16,970 nt of DNA, taken from a virus. Lineage: Duplodnaviria; Heunggongvirae; Uroviricota; Caudoviricetes. Below are positions 1 to 16,970 of the stretch, in pieces (the stretch's first letter is position 1; each line of letters starts with the position of its first letter). The translations under genes and the position numbers were made by a program. The notes under the pieces were generated by a model that saw only the letters and a list, made by a program, of their open reading frames with translations, made no database searches and was not told the origin of the DNA. Where the stretch lies: IMG/VR virus record IMGVR_UViG_2925903241_000002, one strand, 5' to 3'.

Positions 1-1263
1 ATGAAACTCAACGCTCGCCAGATAGAGACCGCAAAGCCGAAAGAGAAAGCTTATAAAATGGCTGATGGAGGCGGTTTGTATCTTGAGGTCTCCCCTAAAG
101 GTTCTAAGTACTGGCGCATGAAATATCGCCGCCCCTCTGACAAAAAGGAAGATCGACTCGCTTTTGGTGTATACCCGACGGTCACTTTGGCTGAAGCGCG
201 GGGTAAGCGCGATGCAGCAAAGAAATTGTTGTCTCAGGGTATTGACCCCAAAGCTGAGCAAAAGGGGGCACAAGCTGAAATTGAGGGGGCATATTTATTT
301 GAAACTATCGCAAGGCAATGGCACGCAAGTAACCTTACTTGGAGCGAAGATCATAGCCGTCGTGTTCTGCTGACACTTGAGCAGTATATTTTCCCCTCGA
401 TAGGTCAAATCGATGCCAGAACGTTGAGAACCAGCCAGCTTCTCAATCCAATCAAAGCTGTCGATACGGCGGGTAAACATGATGTCGCGCAGCGACTGAT
501 GCAGCGCGTAACCGCAATTATGCGTTTTGGTGTGCAGAATGACCTCCTTGAATCAAATCCTGCATGCGATATGGCTGGAGCGCTTTTAAGCGTTAAAGCA
601 ACCCACCACCCAGCACTACCCCCAAAAAGAATCCCTGAGCTTCTTGAAAGACTATCACGCTATAAAGGGCGACTAATGACACGGCTTGCCGTTGAATTAA
701 CGCTACTCACATTTATACGTTCAAGTGAGATGCGTTTTGCTCGCTGGAGTGAGGTTAACTTTGAACGAAGCGAGTGGACAATACCCGGAATTCGTAAGCC
801 TATTCCCGGCGTAAAACACTCTGAGCGTGGGATGAAGATGAAAACTGAACATATTGTTCCGCTTAGCAAACAAGCATTTGATATTTTTAAACGTTTACAT
901 GCCTTGAGTGGTAAAGGTGAGGTTATATTTCCCAGCGATCATGATCCTAAAAAAGTAATGAGTGAAAATACAGTAAATAACGCCTTACGTGTAATGGGAT
1001 ATGATACGAAAACTGAAGTATGTGGTCATGGGTTTAGAACTATGGCGCGTGGTGCGCTAAGTGAGTCGAAACTATGGAATGATGATGCCATTGAAAGACA
1101 GTTAAGCCACGTTGAACGAAAAAATGTGAAAGGTTCATATATGCATACTTCCGAATATCTTGAAGAAAGAAGATTAATGCTGCAGTGGTGGGCTGATTAT
1201 ATTGATGCTAATAAGAATGGATCTGTCACACCATATGATTTTGCGCGTATGCATGGAAAATAA
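1..1263 (+). CDS. int: P4-type tyrosine integrase (site-specific recombinase); window starts at its ATG, so the attachment site, presumably a tRNA/tmRNA 3' end, lies upstream and out of view
   Basis: 420-aa ORF with the typical P4-integrase N-terminus (AKPKEKAYKMADGGGLYLEVSPKGSKYWRMKYR) and a catalytic-domain-like C-terminus (HGFRTMARGALSE ... SYMHTSEY). Family assignment is from motif recognition, not a search. Confidence 0.9.
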   Translation: MKLNARQIETAKPKEKAYKMADGGGLYLEVSPKGSKYWRMKYRRPSDKKEDRLAFGVYPTVTLAEARGKRDAAKKLLSQGIDPKAEQKGAQAEIEGAYLFETIARQWHASNLTWSEDHSRRVLLTLEQYIFPSIGQIDARTLRTSQLLNPIKAVDTAGKHDVAQRLMQRVTAIMRFGVQNDLLESNPACDMAGALLSVKATHHPALPPKRIPELLERLSRYKGRLMTRLAVELTLLTFIRSSEMRFARWSEVNFERSEWTIPGIRKPIPGVKHSERGMKMKTEHIVPLSKQAFDIFKRLHALSGKGEVIFPSDHDPKKVMSENTVNNALRVMGYDTKTEVCGHGFRTMARGALSESKLWNDDAIERQLSHVERKNVKGSYMHTSEYLEERRLMLQWWADYIDANKNGSVTPYDFARMHGK

Positions 1264-1292
1264 TTACCATTGGGGGCTGCGGAGAGATTTAA

Positions 1293-1931
1293 ATGAATAA
1301 TACTCAATTTGATAATAATTTGTTTTATTTTAATAGGTTAACTTACATAACGCCACACGAAGTGGCGCTTGCTATGAATGGTTTTGACTATGATACCGAA
1401 AATGATGAATTGACTGAGGTTCAATTAAAAGAGGTTATTAGATTAAGAAAGGCAATAACCAGAAATCTACAATTAATTAATGAATATAAAAACGTATCCG
1501 CCACGCAAAAAGTGGAGGCGAACTTATTATTAACTGCCGCTTATATCTTTCAGAGGGAAGGTATTGTACCTGTGGAGATTAAGGAGAGAATTGAGAACGC
1601 ATTACGACAACAGGTAAAAAATAAAGATTGGAGTGATATTCTAATGACGTTAGGAGGAAGTGAATTATATGAAGTTGGTAAAAAATTAAGGAGTAATGGT
1701 AGAGGGCAGTACAGAAAAGATGATGAGGATAATTATAGTTGTAAATTAATTTATTTACTAATTGAATTGCTTAAGAGACATGGAAAGGTAAGTTATAGCG
1801 ATAATAGTGTTATATATAATGATATTGTTTCTTTTTGTAATGAGAATGAGATTCTAATGAAAGGGGTTAAAAAAGCTACGTTTTATAAGAAAATAAAGCT
1901 TGGGAAAGACATTATAAAATACGGAGAGTAA
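1293..1931 (+). CDS. hypothetical protein; AT-rich orphan cargo gene between int and alpA
   Basis: 212-aa ORF with GGAGAG 6 nt upstream of the ATG. Composition is visibly AT-rich against the GC-rich backbone; the protein is charged and helix-prone, with no motif I recognise. Confidence 0.6.
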   Translation: MNNTQFDNNLFYFNRLTYITPHEVALAMNGFDYDTENDELTEVQLKEVIRLRKAITRNLQLINEYKNVSATQKVEANLLLTAAYIFQREGIVPVEIKERIENALRQQVKNKDWSDILMTLGGSELYEVGKKLRSNGRGQYRKDDEDNYSCKLIYLLIELLKRHGKVSYSDNSVIYNDIVSFCNENEILMKGVKKATFYKKIKLGKDIIKYGE

Positions 1932-1996
1932 ATTTATTAATTTTCTGGCTATCTCTCAATAGAAGGGCCACAAGAGGCTCTAACGGGCTATAGGGG

Positions 1997-2044
1997 GTAA
2001 TACGATGTAATATGGTGTAATACTGTGCTAATTCCTAGGTAATA
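1997..2044. repeat. helically phased GTAATA(C/T) direct repeats, candidate protein-binding array
   Basis: GTAATA at 1997, 2007, 2017 and 2039, with CTAATT at 2028, giving a 10-11 bp period in an AT-rich intergenic region upstream of alpA. Confidence 0.4.
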
Positions 2045-2308
2045 TGAATCGTTAAAATGCAATAATACCTTTTGACATATGATTTTTTGATTTTCCATCC
2101 TATCCATATGAATTCTATTGATTTTGTTTTTTTTTGTGCATTTCCTTCTCTCCGTGTTCTTTCATATGAATATTACTTCTTTTTTCAGTGGAGATTATTG
2201 TTTTTCAATAGAATCAATATTTGTCTTAATAGATTCCATTATCACTAGAATCACTTTTTCCCAGTGTTTAAAGTCACCGTGAACTTAAGTAGAACACGGA
2301 GTAACAAG

Positions 2309-2539
2309 ATGGAATATGCAAACAGCTTTTCAGATAATCAGACTCTTATCTCAGCAAAAGAGGTCTTAAGACGCGTTCAGCGTAGCAAGGCATGGCTTTA
2401 CAAACAGCTTGCAAACAATACATTTCCCCGTCCGGTGAAAATAGGAACTCGTGCAATTTCATTTGTTGAAAGCGAAGTGGATCACTGGATTCAAGAGCAA
2501 ATATATGCCTCTCGTGGTGAGCGATATGAAAATCACTAA
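2309..2539 (+). CDS. alpA: AlpA-family (excisionase-like, MerR-type HTH) transcriptional regulator
   Basis: GGAG 8 nt upstream of the ATG at 2309. The sequence LISAKEVLRRVQRSKAWLYKQLANNTFPRPVKIGTRAISFVESEVDHWI fits the AlpA pattern (FP+PVK+G.R...W.E+..W). The upstream ATG at 2264 lacks an RBS. Confidence 0.8.
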   Translation: MEYANSFSDNQTLISAKEVLRRVQRSKAWLYKQLANNTFPRPVKIGTRAISFVESEVDHWIQEQIYASRGERYENH

Positions 2540-2544
2540 TAAAA

Positions 2545-2572
2545 AAGCCCGACATAATGAATTTGTGGGCTT
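2545..2572. terminator. hairpin between the convergent alpA and RHH genes; probably a terminator for the minus-strand gene, possibly bidirectional
   Basis: Stem AAGCCCGACA / TGTGGGCTT with one mismatch. An A-run precedes it on the plus strand, which is a U-run after the stem on the minus strand. Confidence 0.4.
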
Positions 2573-2635
2573 AAAAATATTGTCGCTTACTGAAATTAAC
2601 ATGGAAACAGAGAGAACGTCTGTTGGCTTCTCTAT

Positions 2636-2821
2636 TCAACTACCTTGCTCTGGCTTATTTTTCCTGCGCTGTCGGCGTTTAATCTCGCCTTTTACAGCCG
2701 TAACAATGAATTGCGCTTTCGTTTCTCCATCTTCAAGGTTGCTTTCTAATTCTGCAACTACATCATGTGGGAAACGAGCATTAAGTTGCTGCGACTTGTT
2801 GTTAGTTGAACTCGTTGCCAT
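2636..2821 (-). CDS. small ribbon-helix-helix-like (Arc/CopG-type) DNA-binding protein, putative regulator
   Basis: 61-aa ORF with a strong SD (GAGGAG on the minus strand, about 8 nt before the ATG at 2821). The layout QLNARFPHDVV (beta strand), AELESNL (helix), KAQFIVTAVKGEIKRRQRR (basic helix) fits the RHH fold. Fold assignment is inference. Confidence 0.55.
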   Translation of the reverse strand: MATSSTNNKSQQLNARFPHDVVAELESNLEDGETKAQFIVTAVKGEIKRRQRRKNKPEQGS

Positions 2822-2840
2822 TACTGGATCTCCTCGCGTT

Positions 2841-2933
2841 AGGTGCGATTCAGTATATGCAAAAAAAATGATAATAAAAAGCTTGAAGTGCGATTCACTT
2901 AAGGGTAGCTTTAAAATTAAAGGTGCGATTCAC
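2841..2933. repeat. three direct repeats of (A/G)GTGCGATTCA(C/G) followed by an A-rich tract; candidate operator or origin-like site
   Basis: Copies at 2841-2853, 2886-2898 and 2921-2933, with a degenerate fourth (GTGCGAAGCC) at 2941-2950. They lie just upstream of the RHH gene start, between the divergent RHH gene and the primase operon. Confidence 0.5.
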
Positions 2934-3008
2934 CTTGTGAGTGCGAAGCCCGACAGTGCAGCAACACTAACCGGGCTTCTGACCAATCCGCTAAATGAGG
3001 TAACGAAG

Positions 3009-3185
3009 ATGGCTAAACAGAAGTGTACCTGGTTATTTGCGGCGATCAACCGCAGTCAACGCAATACCCGTCCTGTGATGTTAAGGATCACCGCAGATAA
3101 CGAGCGGTCAGCGCGGCGCAGACTTGCCCCGGACTATGTACTGAGCTTTGCCGGGCGCATTCCCTGCGGAGGTGAACATGCGTAA
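3009..3185 (+). CDS. possible small hypothetical protein (59 aa), first gene of the primase operon
   Basis: ATG at 3009 with GAGG about 9 nt upstream; its stop overlaps the next gene's start. It is embedded in a longer 244-aa ORF that is probably spurious upstream, so this call is weak. Confidence 0.3.
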   Translation: MAKQKCTWLFAAINRSQRNTRPVMLRITADNERSARRRLAPDYVLSFAGRIPCGGEHA

Positions 3186-3537
3186 TTATCCGCACCCCGG
3201 CGAACGCTGGCAGCATGAACGTGGCTGGACGGTCACGATTATCCGATTAATAGAAGCCTCGCCCTCTGTGGCGCTGGTTAATCCTGAATTCAGCTGTGAA
3301 GTGCTGATACGTCATGACAGCGACAACCAGCTTTCTTCCTGCCCTCTGGCATGGTTTGAACAGCGGTATACGCGCCTGTTTGATGTACCGCTCTTGAAGC
3401 CTGCACCAGCTCCTGCTGGCGGTAGTGGTTCCGGCCCGCTGACACTGCATCCGTCTGTGCTATTTATCCGCTGGCGGGAGCGTAGCATACGGCGTTCTGC
3501 TGAGCCTGACGACGGTCACTATTCAAAGTTTCTCTGA
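3178..3537 (+). CDS. hypothetical protein
   Basis: ATG at 3178 with GGAGG 6-9 nt upstream; GC-rich like the primase operon. The N-terminal 70 aa look globular and the C-terminus is low complexity, so the true stop may be misjudged. Confidence 0.55.
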   Translation: MRNYPHPGERWQHERGWTVTIIRLIEASPSVALVNPEFSCEVLIRHDSDNQLSSCPLAWFEQRYTRLFDVPLLKPAPAPAGGSGSGPLTLHPSVLFIRWRERSIRRSAEPDDGHYSKFL

Positions 3538-3568
3538 CAAAATACCGCTGAAAACGGAGTAATCCACG

Positions 3569-3853
3569 ATGAATATTTCAAACGGGCACAACGGTGCTCA
3601 GGGCCACACTTTGCCTGAAAAACACAATACCGGTGCTTTTGCCTATGGGTTGTCAGAGGACAGTTTCGGAAAACTGACCCGCGCAAGAAATGCCTGCGAC
3701 ATGCTCCAGCTTCTCTTTTCTGAATACCCGTCTCAGGCCGGAGCACTGGACGCTGGCTGTGCGCATGGTGTCGCCGCGCTGATGGAGTACCTGCTGGCAG
3801 ATTTGACGGATATTGCACACAGCTGCGCACTGATTGAAGGAGGTGCCAGATGA
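3569..3853 (+). CDS. hypothetical protein
   Basis: ACGGAG 9 nt upstream of the ATG; 94 aa; its stop overlaps the next start (ATGA). Confidence 0.6.
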   Translation: MNISNGHNGAQGHTLPEKHNTGAFAYGLSEDSFGKLTRARNACDMLQLLFSEYPSQAGALDAGCAHGVAALMEYLLADLTDIAHSCALIEGGAR

Positions 3854-4233
3854 ACCAGCCGCAGGTTTCCATTTTCCCGGCAGAAATGACCACCGCGCTT
3901 TACCGGCGGGCTATTGCTTCAGCATGGCGGCAGAAAATGCTGAACGAAACTGGCAGTGATCAGTATGGTCCGCACAGCCTGACGGTGGAGCGTATTGAAA
4001 TGGCCATTGCGCTGCATATCGAGTGCGTACTGATTAACGAGTACGGCGAAGCACAGGGCGCCGCTGCCGCGCTGGCACTGCTGACTGACATGCTGGAGCC
4101 GTCACTGCTGACCGCGCCGCCGGTACTGACCGCGCGCGGCTGTGAAGTGATGGCGGAGATGTACCGCACGCTTCCGGCGGCCTTTGATGACTTCTGCAGT
4201 ACCGGTGTGACGTTGTATCAGGGGGAAGTATGA
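3850..4233 (+). CDS. hypothetical protein
   Basis: GAAGGAGG upstream; 127 aa; translationally coupled to both neighbours through ATGA overlaps at 3850 and 4230. Confidence 0.6.
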   Translation: MNQPQVSIFPAEMTTALYRRAIASAWRQKMLNETGSDQYGPHSLTVERIEMAIALHIECVLINEYGEAQGAAAALALLTDMLEPSLLTAPPVLTARGCEVMAEMYRTLPAAFDDFCSTGVTLYQGEV

Positions 4234-6902
4234 CAATACAGACGGTTACGCAGATTTCAGCCGCCGCACGGGGGAAATGGCCCGTTATTCTCCAGATGCT
4301 GCGTATTGATGTACCTGAAAACGGCAGGCACGGTCCCTGCCCGAAATGTGGGGGCAAGGATCGTTTTCGCCTTGATGACCTTGACGGGCGCGGGACGTGG
4401 ATCTGCAGCCAGTGTGGCAATGGTGACGGTCTGGATCTGGTTAAGCTCGTAACCGGTTACAGCGTCAGAAAGGCTGCGCAGGAGGTGGCGCAGGTGCTTA
4501 ATGTGCCGGATGTGCAGGAACTGCCTGTTAAGCCTGCCAGAAAAAAAGCCCCTAAACGCGACATGGGTCTTACCGTGGCGGCGCTGATGAAAGAGAGCCA
4601 CACGGGAGAAAGCGCCTATCTGACAGGAAAAGGGTTCGCCGGATACCCGGCCTCTCTGACCGGAAGCGTGCAGCATATCAGCGGTAAGGATTTTCCTGCC
4701 GGTTCCCTGCTGTTACCACTCACGACCAACACCGGAGCCGTGACTGGTGCACAGCTTATCGCCCCGACGGGTGAAAAAAGCATACTGCCCGGCAGCACGA
4801 TGAAAGGCGCGTTTGTGTCGCTCAGCCCGTTACCGTCTGAACCACCGGTACAGGTGGTGATTACCGAAGGTTACGCTACGGCGCTGACGGTAAGTCAGCT
4901 CACTGCCGGATGCGTAGTGGCTGCCATATCTGCGGGCAACCTGCCCAATGTGGCGCAGTCGCTGCGGGCACGCTGGCCTGAGGTAAAAATTATCATCGCC
5001 GGTGATAACGATTTTCAGGACGGGGGTGAGAATCCCGGCAGAGCCTTTGCTGAACGGGCGGCAAAAGCTGTTGGCGGCTGGATGACGCTGCCACCGGGAG
5101 AGATTAAGGCCGACTGGAATGACTTCCATCGGGAGCACGGTATTACCCGCGCCCGTGAAGCCTTTCGTAACGGTCTGGTGCTGTGCGGGGAGGGCCGCAC
5201 GCAACTGCCGCACGGGTTCCGTCTTACCCAGGAATATCTCTGGTATGAAAAGCAGGTACAGCGCAACGGTGAGACGGAGATCCAGAACGTCAAAATATGC
5301 AGCCCGCTGCGCGTGACGGCAATCACCTGCGATGCCGATGGCGGTAACTTCGGACGACTGCTGGAATGGGAAGATACGTGGGGTGAGTGTCGCCGCTGGG
5401 CGATGCCGATGGAAATGCTGAGCGGCAGTGGTGAGGAACTGCGCCGGGTATTGCTGGTTAACGGGCTGTCTTATATCAGCACCACCGGTGAGGCACGCGC
5501 ACGCCTGATGGAATATATCTCACTGTGTAAACCGGAACGCCGCGTGACCTGCGTCAGTCGTACTGGCTGGCATGGTCAGGTTTACGTCCTGCAGGATGAG
5601 GTCAGCGGTGAAGGTGCAGAGGGTGTCATTCTCCAGACCACTTCCGTGCAGGGGCGTGATTTCCGCGTGTCGGGCACAACAGAGGAATGGCGGGAGCATG
5701 TATCCCGCTACTGTACCGGCAACTCCCGCGTGGCATTTGCTGTCAGCCTGGCCTTTGCTGCACCACTGTTACGGCTGGTTGGTATGGACGGCGGCGGCTA
5801 CCACCTCAAAGGGGAATCGACAGACGGTAAGACCACCACCATGAAAGCGGCAACCTCCGTCTGCGGCGGGCCTGACTACTGGCAGACATGGCGGGCCACC
5901 GGCAACGCGCTGGAGGGATGCGCCAGCCGCCGCAACGATGCCGCCATGATGCTTGATGAGATCCGGGAAGTTGACGGACGCGAGGCAGGCAATATCGCCT
6001 ACATGCTGGCAAACGGTCAGGGCAAGGGCCGTGCCGGTACGGACGGTGAGCTGCGTACCCGTAAGCATTGGCGCCTGTTGTTCTTTTCAACTGGCGAGTT
6101 GTCTCTGACCGAACATGCGGCAAAGGCCGGTGAGCGTACTTTTGCCGGGATGGAAGTCAGGATGATCCAGATCCCCAGCGATTCCGGGAAGTTTGGCGTT
6201 TTTGAGGAGCTGCACGGCTTCGACAGCGGCAAGGCTCTGGCAGAGCATCTTGAATGGGCCACGTCCTGCTACTACGGTTCGCCGTTCCGGGAGTGGCTGA
6301 AAGCACTGACCGCTGATCTTAACGGACTAACGGCACAGGCAAAATCGCTGATGAAGGAATATGCTGCCGCCCTGACTCCGAAAGATGCAGGCAATCAGGT
6401 GGGCCGGGCTGTGAACCGCTTTGCTCTGGTGGCGATGGCAGGTGAACTGGCAACCCGTCTGGGTATCACCGGCTGGCCTGAGGGTGAAGCACTGCGGGCA
6501 ACCCGCGTCTGCCTGAACGCATGGCTGAAAGATCGCGGGCACACCGCCAATCAGGAAGATATCGCCGCACTGGAGCAGGTTCGCAGTTTCTTTACCGCGA
6601 ATCAGTACAGCCGCTTTGCAGACTGGTATGACGAGCGCAACCGCCCCGGCAATATGGTGGGCTGGCGCAGGGTGGAGAAAGGCAGTACCGCGCAGGGCAC
6701 GGAAGCTGTCACTACGTTCTATGTCATGCCGTCCGGCTGGAAAGAAATCTGCAGGGGATTTGACCCGCGCAAGGTGGCGCGTCTGTGCGCAGATCGTGGA
6801 TACCTGCTGCCCTCCACTGATGGCAAACTCCAGACAACCATTCGCCCGCCAGAGATGAATCCCCGCAGGCTCTATGTCTTCAACAGCGAGGTGCCGGGTT
6901 AA
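4230..6902 (+). CDS. P4 alpha-like primase-helicase (zinc-binding domain, Toprim, P-loop NTPase)
   Basis: 890 aa. N-terminal CPKCGG...CSQCGNGDG zinc ribbon; Toprim-like EGYATALT ... IIAGDNDF; Walker A GESTDGKTT; GGGGAAG RBS. Confidence 0.9.
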   Translation: MTIQTVTQISAAARGKWPVILQMLRIDVPENGRHGPCPKCGGKDRFRLDDLDGRGTWICSQCGNGDGLDLVKLVTGYSVRKAAQEVAQVLNVPDVQELPVKPARKKAPKRDMGLTVAALMKESHTGESAYLTGKGFAGYPASLTGSVQHISGKDFPAGSLLLPLTTNTGAVTGAQLIAPTGEKSILPGSTMKGAFVSLSPLPSEPPVQVVITEGYATALTVSQLTAGCVVAAISAGNLPNVAQSLRARWPEVKIIIAGDNDFQDGGENPGRAFAERAAKAVGGWMTLPPGEIKADWNDFHREHGITRAREAFRNGLVLCGEGRTQLPHGFRLTQEYLWYEKQVQRNGETEIQNVKICSPLRVTAITCDADGGNFGRLLEWEDTWGECRRWAMPMEMLSGSGEELRRVLLVNGLSYISTTGEARARLMEYISLCKPERRVTCVSRTGWHGQVYVLQDEVSGEGAEGVILQTTSVQGRDFRVSGTTEEWREHVSRYCTGNSRVAFAVSLAFAAPLLRLVGMDGGGYHLKGESTDGKTTTMKAATSVCGGPDYWQTWRATGNALEGCASRRNDAAMMLDEIREVDGREAGNIAYMLANGQGKGRAGTDGELRTRKHWRLLFFSTGELSLTEHAAKAGERTFAGMEVRMIQIPSDSGKFGVFEELHGFDSGKALAEHLEWATSCYYGSPFREWLKALTADLNGLTAQAKSLMKEYAAALTPKDAGNQVGRAVNRFALVAMAGELATRLGITGWPEGEALRATRVCLNAWLKDRGHTANQEDIAALEQVRSFFTANQYSRFADWYDERNRPGNMVGWRRVEKGSTAQGTEAVTTFYVMPSGWKEICRGFDPRKVARLCADRGYLLPSTDGKLQTTIRPPEMNPRRLYVFNSEVPG

Positions 6903-6936
6903 GGCTTTGCGTGAGTCTTATTTATTAAGGGTAACA

Positions 6937-7124
6937 GGTGAAACAGGTGGAACAACCGTATTTTACAGGGCTGAACCTGTTCCACCTTCTGAAATAGTGA
7001 GGTGGAACAGATGTAACGCCAGCCAATCCGCTGTTCCACCTTGTTACCCGCGATGTTCCACCGGTGCAGTGTATATAAATGCCTTATAAAACAAAGCTGT
7101 AACACATGTTTCACCTGTTCCACC
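6937..7124. repeat. iteron cluster: eight copies of TGTTCCACC or its variant TGTTTCACC in both orientations; candidate alpha-binding cis replication region (crr/ori-like)
   Basis: Forward copies at 6978-6986, 7032-7040, 7054-7062, 7107-7115 (variant) and 7116-7124; reverse copies at 6937-6945 (variant), 6946-6954 and 7001-7009. The cluster lies directly downstream of the primase gene. P4 ori and crr carry the similar octamer TGTTCACC, as I recall it. Confidence 0.6.
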
Positions 7125-7212
7125 GCATCAGGGACATAAAGCAGACTGAAACAGAGGGCATTTTTATCTGGCTGGCTTTCATAGCCACGTCTGAATAACC
7201 GCAAGCGTCCGT

Positions 7213-7230
7213 TGTGCCAGCCACCACACA
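7213..7230 (+). promoter_or_regulatory. TGT-N12-ACA dyad upstream of the sid operon; candidate Ogr/Delta activator site of a P2/P4-type late promoter
   Basis: TGT at 7213-7215 and ACA at 7228-7230 with a 12-nt spacer, centred about 80 bp before the sid ATG. A second dyad at 7251-7268 sits too close to the start codon to be the activator site. Confidence 0.4.
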
Positions 7231-7302
7231 CTGAGCACCGATAGTGTGCTTGTGTCAGCCACGACACAATTGACGTAACGAACCAACCCGACAGGAGAAG
7301 TC

Positions 7303-8046
7303 ATGAACAACACCGCAGTGAATAACAACCTTTCCACTTTTCCGGCTGTAACGCAGCGGGCACTGGAAACCATGAACACAGCCAGAAACGCATGGCTTGA
7401 AGCACGTCGTCAGCAGAAAGCGGCAGCGGATAATATTGCGACAATCCGCCAGCGTCGCGCTGAAATGGAAGCCACGACGAACACACTGAATGAGGAGTGG
7501 CGCACGCTGTTTCGTGAAAGTCAGGGCGTGGTCTCAAAGGAAATGAAAAAACTGCGCACGGAAATTGCGCTGGGACGAGAAACGCTTGAGGATTTTGATG
7601 AGCTGCTGGCGGCTCAGGAAAGCGAAAATGCACTTTTGCCGCAGAAAGCTGCAGAATTAGCCGGAAAGTATATCCACGCGCATAACATTCTTGTGGATAT
7701 TCGCGCAAAACAAATCTGGGAGGATTTTATGCAGTCGCATGGAAAAGCGCTTATTCAGACGCTGAGCCTGCTTAAATCCACAATGGGCCGGGAAGCCAGT
7801 GCCGTTGTGGGTGTGGTGAATTCAGTTAATGACCCGGACACAGTGCTGAAAGACTTTATTCATAAACATATCACCAGACCGGCTCTGGCTAACGATGCGA
7901 TGCCTGAGCAGGACCCGGTGTTTAAACTGGCGGGAGTTGCCCCGGATTATGCGGCGCGTCTGGATTTCAGTAATCAACTCTCTCCGGCAGCTATGCATAA
8001 AATTAAGGTTCGTCAGGAACTTGCTGAGAAGGAGAAAGCAGTATGA
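7303..8046 (+). CDS. sid: Sid-like capsid size determination (external scaffold) protein
   Basis: 247 aa, helical and Ala/Glu-rich. Position after alpha and before psu matches P4. The segment EEWRTLFRESQGVVSKEMKKLR resembles my recollection of P4 Sid. Confidence 0.7.
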   Translation: MNNTAVNNNLSTFPAVTQRALETMNTARNAWLEARRQQKAAADNIATIRQRRAEMEATTNTLNEEWRTLFRESQGVVSKEMKKLRTEIALGRETLEDFDELLAAQESENALLPQKAAELAGKYIHAHNILVDIRAKQIWEDFMQSHGKALIQTLSLLKSTMGREASAVVGVVNSVNDPDTVLKDFIHKHITRPALANDAMPEQDPVFKLAGVAPDYAARLDFSNQLSPAAMHKIKVRQELAEKEKAV

Positions 8047-8594
8047 CGGCCCGAGGCACGCCTGACCAGGCACTTACCAGTTTTCGGAATGCCCGTATTC
8101 TGTGGGCCGGACATAATGAGAGCCGAAAAGCCGTTGAACAACAGATAACATCTCTCCTCGCTGCCACAGAAAAACCAGCAGATTATGCCCGACAGCTCGA
8201 ATTACTGCGGGAACGTCTGGATGTGCTGAAATGGCAAATTAACTGTGCTGCGCGCGAATGCATTTACTCGCAGCATTTACTGATGGAGGCCTGCACAGAA
8301 GCCGCTCTCAGCAATTTTATGCAGGCGAATGGGGCAGCCCTGACATCTGCACTGGCTCCGTTCCTGAAGGGGCGCGGAGGGGTTGACGTTGCGTCCCGTA
8401 TATTACGCAGTGCTCTGGTTCGCCAGCTGGCAATAACACCGCCTGAAATTGCCGGGGATTATCGTGAGATCCTGGATGAATCCGGTTTGATGCCTGACCC
8501 CGGGATGATTCGTGATTGCCAGGGTTCTTACACCCCGGCACAACATCTGCGTTTTCAGCAACGCCTGAATGACATTAACGATATACAGGAGTGA
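8043..8594 (+). CDS. psu: Psu-like polarity suppression / capsid decoration protein
   Basis: 183 aa with an ATGA overlap to sid. The segments LKWQINCAARECIYSQHLL, FMQANGAALTSALAPFL and YTPAQHLRFQQRLN resemble recalled P4 Psu motifs. Confidence 0.7.
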   Translation: MTARGTPDQALTSFRNARILWAGHNESRKAVEQQITSLLAATEKPADYARQLELLRERLDVLKWQINCAARECIYSQHLLMEACTEAALSNFMQANGAALTSALAPFLKGRGGVDVASRILRSALVRQLAITPPEIAGDYREILDESGLMPDPGMIRDCQGSYTPAQHLRFQQRLNDINDIQE

Positions 8595-8599
8595 TATTA

Positions 8600-8872
8600 A
8601 TGGCACTTAAATGTCCGGAATGCGGTACAGTTGCACACGCCAGAACAGCAGCCTATGAAGCTCCGTCAGTTAAACGCTCGTGGTATCAGTGCCAGAATCT
8701 GGAATGTTCCTGCACATTTACGGCACTGGAGAGTGTGGATAAGATAATCATGAAACCCCGGCGCAATGAACAGCTATCAGACAAAGCACAATCCCCGGAA
8801 AAACAACAGAAAACGCTCAATCGCTATGGCTCCGCGTCAAAACTGTCAAGCCGTCAGCAGATTCCTGTCTGA
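8600..8872 (+). CDS. Ogr/Delta-family zinc-finger late transcription activator
   Basis: C-x2-C-x22-C-x4-C (CPECG ... CQNLECSC) at the N-terminus; GGAG 8 nt before the ATG at 8600. The in-frame GTG at 8591 is less likely. Confidence 0.85.
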   Translation: MALKCPECGTVAHARTAAYEAPSVKRSWYQCQNLECSCTFTALESVDKIIMKPRRNEQLSDKAQSPEKQQKTLNRYGSASKLSSRQQIPV

Positions 8873-8892
8873 TTAGAAAGAACGCCCACGTA

Positions 8893-8919
8893 ATCCCGGT
8901 CCAGTACCGGGATTTTTTA
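8893..8919 (+). terminator. rho-independent terminator of the sid-psu-ogr late operon
   Basis: Stem ATCCCGGT / ACCGGGAT (8 bp), loop CCAGT, followed by TTTTTT. Confidence 0.7.
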
Positions 8920-9244
8920 CCCCCTTTTCCTGGCTGACATGAGAGCGCATGAGTGCATGTCTATGGCGCATGAAAACGCATGAGTCTTATGCACCATTTT
9001 TGACGAGAAAACCCTTGTGTGCTGGCTTCTGAGACGATTAATGAGGTGCATGAAAACCAGTCTGTTAAGCGAAGCGGGCAGGCGTGCGGGGCTGCCCGCA
9101 CTAACGGTGATAATTGTGATGTTGCGATATCAAGAGAGATATAAGAATGCTGTATTCAATAAGGTATTGCTTTCAATTGTTAGATTTATTTTTGTTTAAA
9201 TGTCAATGGTTTAGGTGGTTGCTGGCAGCCAGTACGCTTACTTA

Positions 9245-9272
9245 TTGAAAATCTCGCATCTTTTGCTATCCT
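9245..9272 (+). promoter_or_regulatory. candidate sigma70 promoter for the retron ncRNA/operon
   Basis: TTGAAA at 9245-9250, 16-nt spacer, TATCCT at 9267-9272, directly upstream of the structured ncRNA region. Confidence 0.35.
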
Positions 9273-9274
9273 AA

Positions 9275-9450
9275 CCCTACCTTTACGCGCGGGATAACAG
9301 GTTTATCCTTGTCGGGCGTTTCGCCAGACACTAATTTATTGTGGACATTTAGGGTTGCGCTTTAGCACTTTCAGCAAGATCCTTCATGCCACTGCGTTCC
9401 ATTCAGGATCTTGCTGAAAGTCTAAAGCGCATCCTTTAGGTAAAGGGGTC
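9275..9450 (+). ncRNA. retron msr-msd-like non-coding RNA (ends approximate)
   Basis: Two short hairpins (GGATAA-CAGGT-TTATCC at 9292-9308; GGCG-TTT-CGCC at 9315-9325), then a long imperfect inverted repeat: GCGCTTTAGCACTTTCAGCAAGATCC at 9357-9382 pairing with GGATCTTGCTGAAAGTCTAAAGCGC at 9406-9430 (one mismatch, about 22-nt loop). CCTTTAC at 9279 and GTAAAGG at 9440 are candidate a1/a2. It sits immediately upstream of an effector-RT gene pair. Confidence 0.6.
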
Positions 9451-9499
9451 GAAGGTGGCTGGTTAGCCACCTTTTCTTTTGGAGTAGGGGGTCACAAGG

Positions 9500-10486
9500 G
9501 TGAGTGATTCTGCATATATGAATGCATTACAAGAGCAGTTTGGAGATTTGAAATATTCAAATTTCACTGTTCAGTTCATGCCTCCTATTATTTTTGTTTG
9601 TGGTGGGCCGATAAATTCCACTCCAATGAGTGTACGAGACCACATATTTACTTATGTAGCAGGCCACAAACCTGAATTGTCAGATTCTCTTATTTTAGCT
9701 GAGAACTTCCATGACTACTTCAGAGAGGGGGCATATTCAGATCTAATGAGCTTTGAAGATGATATTGCAAATATTTCAACATTAGTTGTTATCTGTTTAG
9801 AAAGTGCAGGTTCGTTAGTTGAGCTTGGATTATTTGTTAATAGGAAGTCTCTAGCTCAAAAATTGCATGTAGTCGCACCATTTGAGGAGATTGAGGGAAA
9901 TGAACGAAAAAATATTCCTGCTAGATCTTCTTTTATATATTTAGGCCCTTTGGAGTATCTTAAAAAAATAGATGAGGCCTCAGTATCAGTTTATCCATGG
10001 CCAAAATCGGATCGTATGAAATATGATGAGGTTGAGCTTATCTACCATGATATTCATTCTAGATTAAAACGTGTAAAAAAAACGGAGCGATATAACCCTG
10101 AAAATACTGGGCACCTAGCTATATTGATTTACGAAATAATCCTTTTATCAGAACCAATCAAGAAAAGCGAAATAGAGTGGGCACTATACTGTATGGATAT
10201 AGATGTGCCACAAAAAATAATAACTCGTTTACTTTATTTGCTTGAAAAGATGAAATTAACCTCATCATTATCTTACAGTGGTACAGACTACTTCTATTCC
10301 CGAGGGCATAGAGAGAGTAAACTTAAATTTGGTATCAGTGCTAGTGGTAAAATAAAGGATTCTATGAATATTAAGGTTGCAATCCGACAATCTTACTTAA
10401 GTATGGATGCTAAAGATATGGACGAGACTGCAAAAAAAAGGAAAAATGCTCTAAATCAAATCAATATCGTGCGTGGAGGGGCTTAG
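9500..10486 (+). CDS. retron effector candidate: nucleoside 2-deoxyribosyltransferase-like N-terminal domain with a possible winged-helix C-terminal domain
   Basis: 328 aa, AT-rich. PPIIFVCGGP and VVICLESAGSLVELGLF resemble the NDT/Rossmann-like fold with a conserved Glu. The start is uncertain: GTG at 9500 or ATG at 9518, neither with a strong SD. The stop lies 1 nt before the RT start. Confidence 0.65.
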   Translation: MSDSAYMNALQEQFGDLKYSNFTVQFMPPIIFVCGGPINSTPMSVRDHIFTYVAGHKPELSDSLILAENFHDYFREGAYSDLMSFEDDIANISTLVVICLESAGSLVELGLFVNRKSLAQKLHVVAPFEEIEGNERKNIPARSSFIYLGPLEYLKKIDEASVSVYPWPKSDRMKYDEVELIYHDIHSRLKRVKKTERYNPENTGHLAILIYEIILLSEPIKKSEIEWALYCMDIDVPQKIITRLLYLLEKMKLTSSLSYSGTDYFYSRGHRESKLKFGISASGKIKDSMNIKVAIRQSYLSMDAKDMDETAKKRKNALNQINIVRGGA

Positions 10487-10487
10487 A

Positions 10488-11420
10488 ATGGAGTTGCTAA
10501 GTTATATTTCAAAAGGTCTTTTTCTTAGCGAAGAAGAGGCTAAAAGGTATATTGTTACTATTCCACGCAGATATAAAATTTATCCTATCGCCAAAAGAAA
10601 TGGTAATGGATATAGATTAATTGCACAACCAGCTAGGCAAGTTAAAGCCTTACAGAAGGTAGTAATCAATCATATGTTGGCTAATTTGAAAGTTCATGAA
10701 AATGCTTTCGCTTATGAAGCCGATAAAAGTATTAGATCTAATGCGTTAATGCATTGTAATAATGATTATTTGCTTAAAATGGATTTTAAAAACTTTTTTA
10801 TGAGTATCAAACCCCATAATCTTTTATCTGTCTTAAAAGATTATGGCGTTGAACTAACTGATACTGATATCTTTGTTCTTAAAAATCTTTTCTTCTGGAA
10901 GTTAAGAAGAAATAGCCCGTTACGCCTAAGTGTTGGAGCACCTTCTTCTCCCATTATTTCAAATACAGTAATGTATTTCTTCGATGAGGAAATATCGAAA
11001 AGATGCAAGGATTTGGGTATTACCTACTCAAGGTATGCTGATGATCTTACGTTTAGCACCAAAGTCAAAGGAGCTTTATTTGATGTTCCTAAGTTAGTAA
11101 GGGAAGTTCTTAACGTAGTAAATCTTAGGAATATTAAAATAAACCATGAGAAAACAGTTTTTACCTCAAGGAAGTTTAATAGACATGTAACTGGTGTAAC
11201 TATTACGACTGATGGTTATTTGTCTTTAGGTCGTGATAGAAAGCGTCTTTTAAGAAGTAAAATACATTATTATGTGTGTGGGGTTTTATCTGAGAAAGAA
11301 ATTCTAACCCTTAAAGGAGAATTAGGCTATGCGAAATTTATTGAACATAAATTCTTTGCCTCCATGATTAAGAAATATGGGGATGATGTAATCAGCGAAA
11401 TTTCAAAATATGAAATTTAA
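10488..11420 (+). CDS. retron-type reverse transcriptase
   Basis: GGAGG 8 nt upstream of the ATG at 10488. RT motifs are present: IYPIAKRNGNGYRLIAQP (motifs 1-2), LKMDFKNFFMSI (3), SVGAPSSPIISN (4), YSRYADDLTFS (5, YADD). NRHVTGVTI carries the retron-characteristic VTG motif, and about 310 aa is typical retron RT size. Confidence 0.85.
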   Translation: MELLSYISKGLFLSEEEAKRYIVTIPRRYKIYPIAKRNGNGYRLIAQPARQVKALQKVVINHMLANLKVHENAFAYEADKSIRSNALMHCNNDYLLKMDFKNFFMSIKPHNLLSVLKDYGVELTDTDIFVLKNLFFWKLRRNSPLRLSVGAPSSPIISNTVMYFFDEEISKRCKDLGITYSRYADDLTFSTKVKGALFDVPKLVREVLNVVNLRNIKINHEKTVFTSRKFNRHVTGVTITTDGYLSLGRDRKRLLRSKIHYYVCGVLSEKEILTLKGELGYAKFIEHKFFASMIKKYGDDVISEISKYEI

Positions 11421-11690
11421 TAGCTTGTTGTCCTAATAAATCAGCATGACTTTATCTAGCTTGCGCAAGGTTGGTTCAGAGGTTTGGTTGTTCTGGTTAG
11501 GCTCTGTAAGACGGAACCTAACTAGGCAACTCTATCTTGCTAATTCATTTATTGTGCTAGTTAGCAACAATAAGATTTTGTTGGGGGCACAAAATGGGGC
11601 ACAAGTCATAAGCTATAAAATTTTTATCATCATGTTCAATGAGTTATATAGTTATTCTATTCCGGCCTTCGCACCATCGGAACATCAATA

Positions 11691-11713
11691 GACGTCAACG
11701 GACGTCTTTTTTT
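11691..11713 (+). terminator. rho-independent terminator closing the retron module
   Basis: GACGTC-AACG-GACGTC hairpin followed by TTTTTTT. Confidence 0.7.
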
Positions 11714-11874
11714 GTGCCTAAAATCCAGTATCCGCAAGGCTTTCCTCGCTTTTTCACTCAACCTAAGTCAACCTGATTCAATCTACATCAACTTACTGAT
11801 GCGGGTACAACTGCGGGTATTTCCCGGTTCGATAATGTTTGTACCCACACAGAACCCTTGAAAGGATACTCATC

Positions 11875-12976
11875 ATGGCTCTGAGTGATGTGAAGGTTCG
11901 TTCGGCTAAGCCTGAAGCAAAAGCCTATAAGCTGACCGACGGTGAAGGCATGGTTTTGCTGGTTCACCCTAACGGCTCCAAATACTGGCGGCTACGTTAT
12001 CGCTTTGGCGGTAAAGAGAAGATGCTGGCATTGGGGAAATACCCCGAAGTGTCGTTGGCGGATGCCAGGGCACGCCGGGATGAGGCTCGTAAGCTTTTAG
12101 CTAATGGTGTCGATCCCAGTGAAAACAAGAAAGCTGTTAAGGTAGAACAGGAACAAGAGGCGATAACGTTGAAGTAGTCGCCAGAGACTGGCACGCCAGC
12201 AATCAGAAGTGGTCGGCATCGCATAGCGCTCGTGTTTTGAAAAGTCTGGAGGATAATCTCTTTACTGCTATCGGTAAGCGGAACATTGCGGAACTGAAGA
12301 CGCGGGATCTTCTTGTACCCATTAAAGCAGTCGAGTCATCCGGGCGGCTCGAAGTTGCCGCCCGTTTACAGCAGCGTACTACCGCGATTATGCGCTTTGC
12401 CGTTCAGAGCGGCTTAATCGACTACAACCCCGCGCAAGAGATTGCAGGTGCGGTTGCTACGGCGAAAAGACAGCACCGTGCAGCTCTTGAACTGAACCGT
12501 ATACCTGAATTACTTCATCGCATAGATCACTATTCTGGCAGACCGTTAACTCGGCTGGCGGTTGAACTCACTTTATTGGTTTTCATCCGTTCGAGCGAGC
12601 TGCATTTTGCCCGCTGGTCAGAAGTAGATTTTGAAACGGCTATGTGGACAATCCCAGGTGAGCGTGAGCAACTGGAAGGAGTCAAGCATTCTCAGCGTGG
12701 CTCGAAGATGCGGACACCACACCTTGTGCCTTTGTCGCGGCAGGCCCTAAGTATTTTGGAAAAGATCAAAAGCATGAGCGGAAATTGAGAGCTGATTTTT
12801 GTGGGCGATCACGATCCACGTAAGCCGATGAGTGAGAATACGGTGAACAAGGCTTTGCGCGTAATGGGGTATGACACGAAGGTCGAGGTTTGTGGGCATG
12901 GCTTCAGGACGATGGCTTGTAGTTCGTTGATTGAGTCGGGATTATGGTCGAGGGATGCGGTAGAGCGGCAGATGAG
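11875..12976 (+). pseudogene. second P4-type integrase, inactivated by a frameshift, a nonsense codon and 3' truncation by the IS element
   Basis: AAGGA RBS and ATG at 11875. The translation parallels the first integrase across three frames: a frame break near 12160-12177, an in-frame TGA at 12786-12788 where the first integrase has Gly, and an end at the IS inverted repeat at 12977. Confidence 0.8.
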
Positions 12977-13018
12977 TGAACCGCCCCGGGTTTCCTGGAG
13001 AGTGTTTTATCTGTGAAC

Positions 13019-15761
<2,743 letters not shown>

Positions 15762-16175
15762 CGTAAGTAAAATCAGCCACCCACAGCTGGTCAGGTCGTT
15801 CTGCCACGAACTGACGGTTTACGCGGTCGCCTGCGGCAACGGCTTTCCGGCTGATGGTCGTACGGACCTTTTTACCCCGGAGAACACCGGCAAGTCCCAT
15901 AACCGCCATGAGACGTGCCACAGTGCATCTGGCCACTCTGATACCTTCCCGTAACAACTGACGCCAGACTTTACGCACACCGTATACCTTGTGATTTTCA
16001 TCGTATACGCGCTGTATCTCTTTCTTCAGCCAGTCATCGCGCTGCGCACGGGCACTGCGTTTATCCGGATGATGTCGCTGTTGCTGACAGTGGTAATACG
16101 TTGACGGGGCAATATGCAGTTCGCTGCATAGCGGTCCGACCCCGTACTGCTCACGCAGCTTATCCAGCAGTGGCA

Positions 16176-16179
<4 letters not shown>
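15762..16179 (-). pseudogene. IS3-family transposase OrfB, 5' exon (interrupted by the group II intron after ...LWVADFTY)
   Basis: The reading frame runs into intron sequence (GVPGVQ ...) at 15761; the intron begins GTGTG on the minus strand. Confidence 0.8.

Positions 16180-16970
<791 letters not shown>

Follow-up and report, generated by a model that had tools for sequence, protein, structure and literature searches.

A Probable P4-Family Phage Satellite with a Largely Co-Directional Backbone at the leuX Locus of E. coli

Introduction

The window (the whole stretch of DNA analysed here, 16,970 nucleotides of virus record IMGVR_UViG_2925903241_000002) opens with an integrase gene and continues through a primase-helicase gene into candidates for sid, psu, and delta, raising the question of whether these genes form a satellite of the P4 family, where such an element ends, and whether its genes are ordered as in P4. 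The original prediction placed a P4-like backbone with the gene order of P4-family satellites at positions 1–9100. ORFs, domain matches, and the iteron count confirm the listed genes and iterons at their places, and the element, which extends beyond 9100, is by its gene content a P4-family satellite, as had been proposed: Sid, Psu, and Delta fall into the PHROG families of the P4 proteins. We regard it as likely, with good confidence, that the locus holds a complete, integrated satellite of P2-like phages of ~11.86 kb at leuX. The predicted gene order did not hold.

Attachment Site and Extent

1–1263, + strand: int, P4-type tyrosine integrase (Pfam Arm-DNA-bind_3, Phage_int_M, and Phage_integrase)
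11581–11677: right end, with P4-type arm repeats and attR core

The integrase is 72% identical to P4 Int over 410 aa, and the insertion site, leuX, an E. coli tRNA-Leu gene, is the same as P4's own. The attL core lies inside tRNA-Leu, ~165 bp before window position 1 (in Ec-050, tRNA-Leu is 164 bp upstream of int). At the right end, P4-type arm repeats (TTGGGGGCACAAAATGGGGCACAAG, 11581–11605) are followed by an attR core (TCCGGCCTTCG-CACCAT, 11661–11677) with one G fewer than the tRNA-Leu core; in the related element L005 the 18-nt core at the corresponding position is perfect, and the annotation of P4 (NC_001609) includes an attP core with arm repeats. This 1-nt loss may impair excision of the present copy. 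The element thus delimited totals ~11.9 kb (P4, 11.6 kb; L003, 11.4 kb; L005, 10.6 kb), and positions 1–9100 would be its left three quarters; the extent first proposed omits the cos core, the retron cargo, and attR.

The expected lack of capsid and tail genes was borne out: profile searches over 1–11700 gave no match to capsid, tail, portal, or terminase families, and no structural genes occur within the element or in its adjoining flanks. To the left stand tRNA-Leu and core genes, to the right IS debris and an integrase pseudogene. The backbone ORFs are intact throughout and free of frameshifts.

Early Region and Regulation

1293–1931, + strand: cargo slot 1, 212-aa protein (GC 33–35%; phrog_30524, function unknown)
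2309–2539, + strand: alpA, AlpA/Vis-type regulator and excisionase (Pfam Phage_AlpA, E=1.6e-11)
2636–2821, – strand: small, divergent YlcI/YnfO-family gene (NCBIfam YlcI_YnfO_N, E=2.8e-18)
2843–2932: three direct GTGCGATTCA repeats between the divergent gene and the early operon
3009–3185, + strand: icd-like small protein (NCBIfam phage_ICD_like, E=1.2e-23)
3178–3537, + strand: orf119 (phrog_30862)
3569–3853, + strand: orf94, function unknown (phrog_14861)
3850–4233, + strand: DUF5375 protein (Pfam DUF5375, E=8e-14)

The slot directly after int is variable among relatives, being occupied by a different 293-aa gene in L003 and by a 236-aa gene in the Pantoea element L010; the 212-aa protein encoded there in the present element had no match in Pfam, PADLOC, NCBIfam, or PDB. 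AlpA shares phrog_66 and phrog_2790 with P4 orf88 and is 26% identical to it (E=6e-6), and is, judged from these matches, its counterpart. The divergent gene that follows is without a counterpart in P4. The pattern of its sequence suggests a ribbon-helix-helix (RHH) fold, and we propose its product as a candidate immunity repressor and the GTGCGATTCA repeats as its candidate operators at the early promoter. GTGCGATTCA matches just three times in the window, always inside these 90 bp, and in L005 it is replaced at the corresponding places by GTGGGCCACA, beside a diverged RHH gene, so that RHH allele and repeat sequence co-vary among relatives.

The early operon is headed by the icd-like gene, whose product is 54% identical to P4 and homologous to the C-terminal part of the P4 ORF annotated "cI"; as in P4, the icd-like gene ends 8 nt inside the one that follows. 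This second gene, orf119, sits in the position of epsilon, and an assignment as epsilon was rejected by hhalign (probability 0.1%); a comparison with P4 orf151 (probability 53%, E=1.4e-4) suggests a weak homologue of the latter. A 94-aa gene at the place of orf94 is also found in L003, L005, and the Pantoea element L010 and is thus kept within the lineage. The DUF5375 protein is 40% identical to P4 orf106 (cnr) and shares phrog_5991 with it. PHROG and other profile searches and hhalign detected no epsilon homologue in the element, and Rfam gave no match to a C4/CI-type immunity RNA.

Replication Protein and Iterons

4230–6902, + strand: 890-aa primase-helicase (Pfam Zn_Ribbon_Prim, Toprim_3, and DUF927, the last with E=1.9e-90)
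6937–7124: iteron cluster, putative ori (eight TGTTYCACC copies in both orientations)

The identification of this protein as P4 alpha stands for its primase half, residues 5–316 being 38% identical to alpha, and fails for its helicase half, which is a DUF927 domain in place of the D5_N, DUF5906, and Pox_D5 domains of P4. Residues 415–640 match the PDB chains 8TCH ("Pathogenicity island protein"; E=8e-15) and 5DGK ("Active helicase"; E=2e-13), which we take to be SaPI Rep and the SCCmec Cch helicase, respectively, and the translated sequence shows a Walker A (GESTDGKT) and a Walker B (MMLDE) motif. By these domain matches the alpha-like protein is a chimera of a P4-type Zn-ribbon/Toprim primase and a SaPI-Rep/Cch-type DUF927 helicase.

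The iterons downstream are in inverted arrangement; eight were found against 0.3 expected across the window, a count reached in none of 200 shuffles. The iteron TGTTCCACC differs from the P4 type I iteron (TGTTCACC) by one inserted base, and the element has a single iteron cluster, whereas P4 has both ori and crr.

Late Operon

7213–7268, + strand: Psid-type late promoter region (two TGT-N12-ACA dyads, 7213–7230 and 7251–7268)
7303–8046, + strand: sid, external capsid-size scaffold (PDB 7JW1_E, P4 Sid, E=5.9e-10)
8043–8594, + strand: psu, capsid decoration protein and Rho inhibitor (Pfam Psu, E=1e-44)
8600–8872, + strand: delta, single-domain Ogr/Delta zinc-finger late-gene activator (Pfam Ogr_Delta, E=1e-15; start at 8591 if a GTG start is used)
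8893–8919, + strand: hairpin followed by a T-run, read from the sequence

The promoter region is homologous to that of P4: in an alignment with the sequence preceding P4 sid both dyads are invariant, and the region is kept in L003, L004, and L005. Profile searches for the three late proteins, named with the original prediction as its check, found homology for each, and the best solved-structure matches of Sid and Psu were the P4 proteins themselves. Sid (residues 12–230, aligned to 5–222 of 7JW1_E) belongs to phrog_6165, the family of P4 Sid (E=8.7e-93), and is 24% identical to P4 Sid over 226 aa; Psu matches PDB 3RX6 (P4 Psu, E=5.5e-14) and phrog_6366 and is 30% identical to P4 Psu. The single-domain delta after psu is real, as noted earlier. 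Its product carries the motif CX2CX22CX4C with all four cysteines invariant, and is 47% identical to P2 Ogr (E=6e-17) and 45% and 26% identical to the two halves of P4 delta. On these matches, all three late proteins are true homologues of their P4 namesakes. The hairpin is invariant in four elements, was not flagged by a terminator consensus scan, and is likely the terminator of the late operon.

Candidate Packaging Site and Retron Cargo

8930–9100: cos region (GCATGA repeats, then AAGCGGGCA, then GGCGTGCGGGGCTGCCCGC at 9081–9099)
9279–9486, + strand: retron non-coding RNA, msr/msd (Rfam msr 42 bits and STnc400 55 bits, both under gathering scores)
9500–10486, + strand: retron NDT-like effector (PADLOC NDT_II-A, E=1.8e-87)
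10488–11420, + strand: retron reverse transcriptase (PADLOC RT_II-A, E=7e-121)

About 240 bp after delta are kept in four elements of differing cargo, and conservation ends at ~9100. Matches to this region lie between gpA and portal, where cos is located, in the P2-like phages RE-2010 and MLG42 (Peduoviridae), and it aligns with the P4 cos junction; GGCGTGCGGGGCTGCCCGC resembles the P2/P4 cohesive end, which makes 9081–9099 a candidate P2/P4-type cos. Only about half of the positions of the 19-nt core match P2/186, with a 1-nt shift, so that any given helper may or may not cleave it. Beyond it, 9279–11420 is, by its profile matches, a type II-A retron in the cos-adjacent hotspot (cargo slot 2); NCBIfam St85-family matches for effector and reverse transcriptase both exceed their cut-offs, and the GC content of the effector/reverse transcriptase region is 31–36%.

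Gene Order, Relatives, and Alternative Interpretations

The backbone genes are all co-directional save the RHH gene, with the late operon downstream of alpha on the same strand. The annotated P4 prophage (NC_001609) reads, from int: int, hotspot, cos, psu-delta-sid on the opposite strand, ori, alpA to alpha, and crr. On the circle the modules follow one another identically in both (att/int, early/replication, ori, late, cos, hotspot), but in the present element int cassette and early operon are both inverted, which puts attP between hotspot and int and leaves the backbone co-directional save the RHH gene; hotspot and cos accordingly lie at the end of the prophage far from int, unlike in P4. 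Common to both are homologous AlpA/Vis, icd-like, orf151, cnr/DUF5375, alpha primase domain, Sid, Psu, and Delta, as well as a Psid-type two-dyad promoter, a P2-type cos beside a cargo hotspot, and the lack of structural genes. The present element differs in being without epsilon and a detectable CI/C4 RNA, in its extra RHH gene with operator repeats, in a second cargo slot between int and alpA, and in a late operon ordered sid-psu-delta, with a single-domain delta, where P4 has sid-delta-psu.

A canonical P4 organisation with delta as its sole difference, tempting as the gene set is almost P4's, is therefore refuted and retains hardly any probability. In P4, sid-delta-psu is divergent from the alpA-to-alpha operon, and hotspot, cos, and late operon part int from alpA. 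A survey of complete P4-like elements, in the part of its text available, reports the canonical order in 77% and a psu/delta swap, the commonest departure, in a further 20% (together ~97%), and lists no order variant like the present one (PMC8628076). L004, an O157-type element whose late operon is 92.5% identical in DNA to the present one, keeps the canonical order, and the two layouts are clearly distinct. With its co-directional P4-type layout, the element is a variant within a known kind. In published surveys it was probably classed as P4-like "Type C, lacking epsilon and alpha"; their Type C#01 likewise has Int, AlpA, Sid, Psu, and Delta without epsilon (Moura de Sousa and Rocha 2021, PMC8628076; SatelliteFinder 2023, PMC10085698), and a P4-alpha profile may have missed the present alpha gene. 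Unlike what is described for type C, the present late operon is not early-branching, given its identity to that of L004, and the co-directional order, DUF927 replacement, and RHH switch are undescribed in the accessible parts of PMC8628076 and PMC10085698.

A PICI-type island that uses lambdoid helpers and merely borrowed Psu-family genes appears very improbable to us. It would account for the co-directional succession of int, accessory gene, alpA, primase-helicase, ori, and interference module, shared with Gram-negative PICIs and SaPI replication modules (PMC10085698), and for the SaPI-type helicase related to 8TCH and 5DGK; DUF927 primases have been pooled with PICI primases (PMC10111431). 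Unlike PICIs, however, the element is without terS, Rpp, and Cpm (profile searches for terS, Rpp/Ppi, and capsid-morphogenesis families gave no match), its interference module is the P4 sid-psu-delta behind a P4-type late promoter, its packaging site is of P2/P4 type, and its early operon (icd-like, orf151-like, DUF5375, alpha primase) is P4-specific. A less remote reading, although still unlikely, is that the present copy is a domesticated, immobilised remnant kept as a retron or defence island, its satellite function lost. Many related clinical genomes carry the element with 100% identity, in keeping with vertical inheritance; beside it, in tandem, are a second, degraded leuX island and IS debris; its attR core is one nucleotide shorter than that of attL by deletion, where L005 is perfect; and blastn and megablast detected no second P2 terminase/capsid locus in Ec-050, AR216.2b, AR202.2 (these three among the best matches to window 1–11800), or ST167. 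Yet the backbone ORFs are unbroken; cos, iterons, and late-promoter dyads are conserved; and the single-base indel may fall outside the strand-exchange region. The search for a P2-like helper, negative in those four genomes, was positive elsewhere: among 60 genomes with the identical retron, 29 carry P2-type O–N capsid genes (megablast) and 40 a further locus matching the query's P2 terminase gene P (blastn), so that about half or more of the genomes with the identical element also have P2-like genes.

The satellite architecture is widespread. The backbone (2264–8900) has one colinear match, at least 80% covered, in 307 of 5,426 complete E. coli genomes, and the layout recurs at tRNA-Arg with another integrase and other cargo (L003) and in Pantoea stewartii (L010), where orf119 is 55% identical.

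Proposed Life Cycle

All steps below are proposals from homology and sequence features. In the prophage, the RHH-like protein bound to the three GTGCGATTCA repeats would hold the early operon off. Upon infection by, or induction of, a P2-like phage, AlpA and Int would excise the element, and the alpha-like protein, to which its domains and the iterons lend a predicted replication activity, would replicate the circle from the TGTTCCACC iterons directly downstream of its gene. In the absence of epsilon, derepression of a resident helper is probably beyond this lineage, which would instead wait for a helper that arrives from outside or is induced spontaneously. The Psid-type promoter would then be switched on, through its dyads, by Ogr from the helper and by the satellite's single-domain Delta; by analogy with P4, Sid as an external scaffold would force helper gpN into small capsids and Psu would decorate them, and helper terminase would cut and package the satellite at the P2/P4-type cos beside delta. 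The cos-adjacent retron, and perhaps also the 212-aa gene after int, would travel as accessory cargo, probably defensive.

The retronphage phiR73 resides at selC, with a different integrase and retron Ec73, and its delta is presumably also single-domain. As described, it resembles the present element: phiR73 is a P4-like satellite whose retron is adjacent to cos, and its transfer depends on P2 (Inouye et al. 1991, cited in PMC9122126 and PMC8628076).

Gene Content

The element integrated at tRNA-Leu (leuX) is a variant form of a familiar type of satellite: it is co-directional, with a DUF927 helicase, a putative RHH switch and a retron, and it is without epsilon. The core components against which it was tested are those of two surveys of P4-like satellites (PMC8628076; PMC10085698), and it has Int, AlpA, Sid, Psu, Delta, the primase of alpha and a putative P2-type cos, which upholds the original prediction of P4-family identity. 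The accompanying statement that capsid and tail genes are lacking is also borne out, with no structural family of Pfam or PHROG in the element and no phage structural genes in its flanks. All features named in the original prediction are found in the sequence; the main ones are as follows.

1-1263, int, a tyrosine integrase with three integrase domains and 72% identity to P4 Int
1293-1931, cargo ORF, 212 aa, GC 33-35%
2309-2539, alpA, an AlpA-type regulator (Phage_AlpA, E=1.6e-11)
2636-2821 (-), RHH gene, 61 aa, YlcI/YnfO family
3009-3185, icd-like gene opening a four-gene operon, then orf119, orf94 and DUF5375
4230-6902, primase-helicase, 890 aa, Zn_Ribbon_Prim + Toprim_3 + DUF927
6937-7124, iterons, eight TGTTYCACC copies versus 0.3 expected by chance
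9279-9486, msr/msd of a type II-A retron (St85 family), which occupies the cos-adjacent slot with an NDT-like effector and a reverse transcriptase

Extent and Integration Site

Over positions 1-11,800 the window has 100% identity to many E. coli chromosomes, including those of Ec-050, AR216.2b, and M217. In Ec-050 the core genes ahr and yjgR are followed by tRNA-Leu, and window base 1, the integrase start codon, lies 164 bp downstream of the tRNA gene. The tRNA-Leu 3′ end (TCCGGCCTTCGGCACCAT) is repeated at 11661-11677 as TCCGGCCTTCG-CACCAT (the attR core), and P4-type arm repeats adjoin both att copies (TTGGGGGCAT... by int and TTGGGGGCACAAAATGGGGCAC at 11581-11605); arm repeats are likewise present in the annotation of P4 itself. 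Because the tRNA end and the arm repeats recur there, the element runs from attL, just left of the window, to 11677. The range of 1-9100 predicted for the satellite backbone thus covers the backbone but places the right boundary of the element too early. The distance from att core to att core (about 11.86 kb) lies within the 10-12 kb size range of P4-like satellites. The attR core has one G fewer than the tRNA-Leu/attL core, and this 1-nt flaw may make the window copy poor at excision; the att core of a related element in strain 21AR0133 (L005, 14158-14213) is perfect.

Gene Order and Relatives

It was the predicted P4-family gene order that failed. Reading from int, the element has alpA, alpha, sid, psu, and delta, whereas P4 has psu-delta-sid, alpA, epsilon, and alpha. 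In full, the P4 prophage is arranged as int, hotspot, cos, psu-delta-sid (on the other strand), ori, alpA to alpha, and crr, whereas the window element is arranged as int, cargo, alpA to alpha, iterons, sid-psu-delta, cos, hotspot, and attR. On a circular map the two share one module order (att/int, early, ori, late, cos, hotspot); the window element has both its int cassette and its early operon inverted relative to P4, so that all genes but the RHH gene are co-directional. A survey of about 1,000 elements gives the P4 order for 77% of complete elements and a psu/delta swap for a further 20%, and it describes no variant with the order seen here (PMC8628076).

Co-directional integrase, AlpA, and primase-replicase genes are a mark of PICIs, and the element has all three so arranged; the same trio occurs in ordinary P4-likes too (PMC10085698), and neither a PICI small terminase/Rpp nor a PICI capsid-morphogenesis gene was found in Pfam or PHROG scans. 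Neither megablast with 1-11800 nor tblastn with Sid (at 1e-3) gave a match among phages, so the collections searched contain no annotated satellite "phage" that is closer.

Of 5,426 complete E. coli genomes, 307 cover at least 80% of the backbone (2264-8900) with a single colinear match; given these genomes and the other loci that share it, the co-directional layout is not a one-off. Four related loci were compared with the window element.

L003, at tRNA-Arg: order as in the window; att repeats perfect over 16 nt and 11.4 kb apart; another integrase and other genes in both cargo slots
L005, at leuX of E. coli 21AR0133: order as in the window; att core perfect over 18 nt; length 10.6 kb; psu not present as a separate gene; one cargo gene portal-like
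L010, in Pantoea stewartii: order as in the window; Zn_Ribbon_Prim+Toprim_3+DUF927 protein of 890 aa, with a Psu-family, an Ogr_Delta, and another Psu-family gene after it
L004, in an O157-type E. coli: canonical P4 layout; 777-aa primase-helicase, of P4-alpha size; late operon 92.5% identical (DNA)

The orf119 of the Pantoea locus is only 55% identical to that of the window. Its Ogr_Delta gene lies between the two Psu-family genes (L010, 14093-15821), placed as in P4 sid-delta-psu yet within a co-directional layout, and this pairing makes the psu/delta swap independent of chassis orientation. In the O157-type strain a near-identical late/cos module sits in an element of canonical order; we conclude that these hijack modules move between the two chassis types. 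At 11043-13852 the 21AR0133 locus carries one Sid/Psu-family gene (253 aa) with delta directly after it, and its cos-adjacent slot holds a small ORF and a 351-aa gene whose annotation reads "phage portal protein"; to find a portal-like gene in the hotspot of a satellite is unusual.

Late Operon, cos Region, and Helper Phage

The late genes encode proteins of 247 aa, 183 aa, and 90 aa. The first has P4 Sid as its best match among solved structures (7JW1, E=5.9e-10, residues 12-230) and belongs to phrog_6165 (E=9e-93), the family that also contains P4 Sid; the second is a Psu protein (Pfam Psu, E=1e-44; PDB 3RX6, E=5.5e-14); and the third is an Ogr_Delta protein (E=1e-15) with 47% identity to P2 Ogr. 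Profile searches thus identify all three as homologs of P4 proteins, in agreement with the original assignment. The 247-aa protein was also considered as a second Psu; P4 Psu matches its C-terminal half only, and weakly (E ~8e-5), while Sid matches over the full length, and the candidate was rejected. RefSeq names for this gene (7303-8046) vary by genome between "phage polarity suppression protein" and "septation initiation protein," the latter of which looks like a wrong expansion of "Sid."

The Delta protein matches both halves of the tandem P4 delta and keeps all four cysteines of CX2CX22CX4C. It is a single Ogr-type domain, compared with the tandem in P4, and its gene follows psu in the order sid, psu, delta, as had been proposed. 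Upstream of sid are two TGT-N12-ACA dyads (7213-7230 and 7251-7268), the motif that Ogr and Delta bind at late promoters of P2 and P4; the region aligns with that upstream of P4 sid, and both dyads are invariant.

Some 240 bp 3′ of delta are almost invariant in four elements whose downstream genes are unrelated, and conservation ends abruptly at about 9100. A search of the phage collection with this block returned matches in Peduoviridae (P2-like) only; in RE-2010 it falls between gpA/DinI and the portal gene, and in MLG42 directly after gpA/DinI, at a locus that ends before any portal gene. The P2 cos is placed in the gpA-to-portal region (PMC9122126). Alignment with the P4 cos junction reveals GCATGA-type repeats and ...GTGCATGAAAACC...AAGCGGGC in common, and the core GGCGTGCGGGGCTGCCCGC at 9081-9099 resembles the P2/P4 cohesive end GGCGAGGCGGGGAAAGCAC. 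We read this block as a candidate cos site; by alignment to P4 and P2-like phages it is of P2 type, and it adjoins the late operon and the cargo hotspot, as in P4-like satellites. Judged by its sequence, the element appears to have all parts needed for the predicted P2-dependent transfer.

The search for a helper used chimeric queries, in which a P2 gene was appended to a retron marker, and counted matching places per genome in 60 top genomes, all with an identical retron. With the terminase gene P, at least one further locus was found in 40 of the 60 (blastn); with the capsid genes O-N, a further locus was found in 29 of the 60 (megablast). Neither query gave a further locus in the genomes of Ec-050, AR216.2b, AR202.2, and ST167, the first three of which are among the best matches to 1-11800. 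For putative mobilization by a P2-like helper, with formation of small capsids, the counts of 29 to 40 carriers in 60 are indirect evidence. In genomes of the Ec-050 type, where no resident helper was detected, the element would need an incoming one.

Replication Protein and Iterons

The predicted alpha primase-helicase is of P4 type in its primase part only. Residues 5-316 (the Zn-ribbon/Toprim primase) are 38% identical to residues 4-311 of P4 alpha and are the only P4-alpha-like part of the 890-aa protein. The rest is DUF927 (E=1.9e-90), in place of the D5_N, DUF5906, and Pox_D5 domains of P4 alpha; the D5-type helicase and Pox_D5 C-terminal domain expected of a P4-like are missing. The solved relatives of this part are 8TCH and 5DGK, named in the database "Pathogenicity island protein" and "Active helicase," which are a SaPI Rep and the Cch helicase, respectively; the protein also weakly matches the NCBIfam SCCmec Cch1 model. 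The domain composition suggests that alpha was not lost but replaced by a primase::DUF927 fusion.

The iteron unit is that of P4 (TGTTCACC) with one extra C. The single cluster is both downstream of alpha, like P4 crr, and upstream of sid, like P4 ori.

Early Region and Regulation

Three GTGCGATTCA repeats lie between the divergent RHH gene and the early operon. In the 21AR0133 locus, GTGGGCCACA stands at the positions matching these repeats, together with a diverged allele of the RHH gene. From this pairing we infer a putative immunity module of repressor and operators, which would be expected to show just such a pattern.

No C4/CI-type immunity RNA was found with Rfam in the whole window, nor in 2500-3300 at E<=10; the Rfam matches there are at chance level (for example, symR at 24.6 bits, where the gathering score is 61). 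When the early leader was aligned locally with the P4 leader, only the icd-like coding part aligned. Epsilon is truly absent from the element: no window protein matches the Epsilon/Ash families (PF25738 in Pfam to E<=10; phrog_10016 in PHROG). At the position of epsilon is orf119, a weak homolog of P4 orf151 (hhalign E=1.4e-4); as a candidate for epsilon it was ruled out, hhalign against epsilon having given nothing.

The early-operon leader contains a stable hairpin (GAAGCCCG...CGGGCTTC, 2946-2980) just 5′ of the icd-like gene. It is kept in the 21AR0133 locus, and in the tRNA-Arg locus base changes preserve the pairing; its fold z-score is only -1.9, and no Rfam family covers it. It might act as a signal for processing or for attenuation.

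Between int and alpA, the 212-aa cargo protein belongs to a narrow enterobacterial family (phrog_30524) and is predicted to be all-helical. It had no match in PADLOC, NCBIfam, Pfam, or PDB sequence searches, and no relative with a known function was detected; its AlphaFold model is weak (pLDDT 64, pTM 0.41), and a Foldseek search of PDB with that model gave nothing at E<1. Since relatives hold other genes at 1293-1931, this slot looks like a second cargo hotspot.

Evolutionary Interpretation

Few mobile elements of Enterobacterales are as abundant as P4-like satellites, which are also major carriers of anti-phage systems. The surveys stress their "highly conserved organization," describe as distinctive an Escherichia subfamily that consists entirely of Type C elements, and leave open whether the functions missing from Type C are dispensable or replaced (PMC8628076; PMC10085698). 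The window element probably fits the Type C subfamily "lacking epsilon and alpha," and the locus suggests an answer for such variants, namely that alpha is replaced and epsilon absent. Regulation appears to have passed to a protein repressor whose operators co-vary with it, and the genome to have been re-oriented with its circular module order and size limit kept.

The broadest reading of these data, to which we give slightly less than an even chance, is that the element stands for an old and distinct P4-family lineage of co-directional layout, in which a DUF927 protein of SaPI-Rep/Cch type stands for the D5-type helicase and an RHH repressor-operator switch of several specificities stands for the CI-RNA/epsilon circuit, with the late-operon/cos module still swapped with canonical P4-likes. 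If this is true, the element would be a non-inducing satellite, one that waits for a helper instead of awakening one, and a natural bridge between P4 and PICI designs. In about 6% of E. coli genomes such elements may be under-classified by tools that depend on gene order or on a P4-alpha profile. The data leave the basic understanding of P4-type satellites as it was.

Retron Cargo and Right Flank

The retron was identified with PADLOC (NDT_II-A and RT_II-A) and by NCBIfam matches above cut-off; the Rfam msr and STnc400 matches at 9279-9486 are both below the gathering score. Retrons at the cos-adjacent hotspot of P4-likes are already known (PMC9122126).

To the right of attR, at 11839-13016, a further integrase of P4 type (50-58% identity to P4 Int) carries a frameshift and is cut short by an IS3-family element; it is what remains of a different island that formerly sat in tandem at leuX. 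At 13019-16502 an IS3/IS629-family element has its orfB split by a group II intron, and the window ends within a further insertion sequence.

13019-13465, C-terminal part of the split orfB (rve)
13492-13578 (-), group II intron domain V/VI
13582-15105 (-), intron RT/maturase
15697-16179, N-terminal part of the split orfB (HTH_21)
16105-16221, ALIL frameshift pseudoknot, intact
16176-16502, IS3/IS629-family orfA, intact
16605-16970, fragment of an IS21-family (IS100kyp-like) istB helper ATPase, running off the window end
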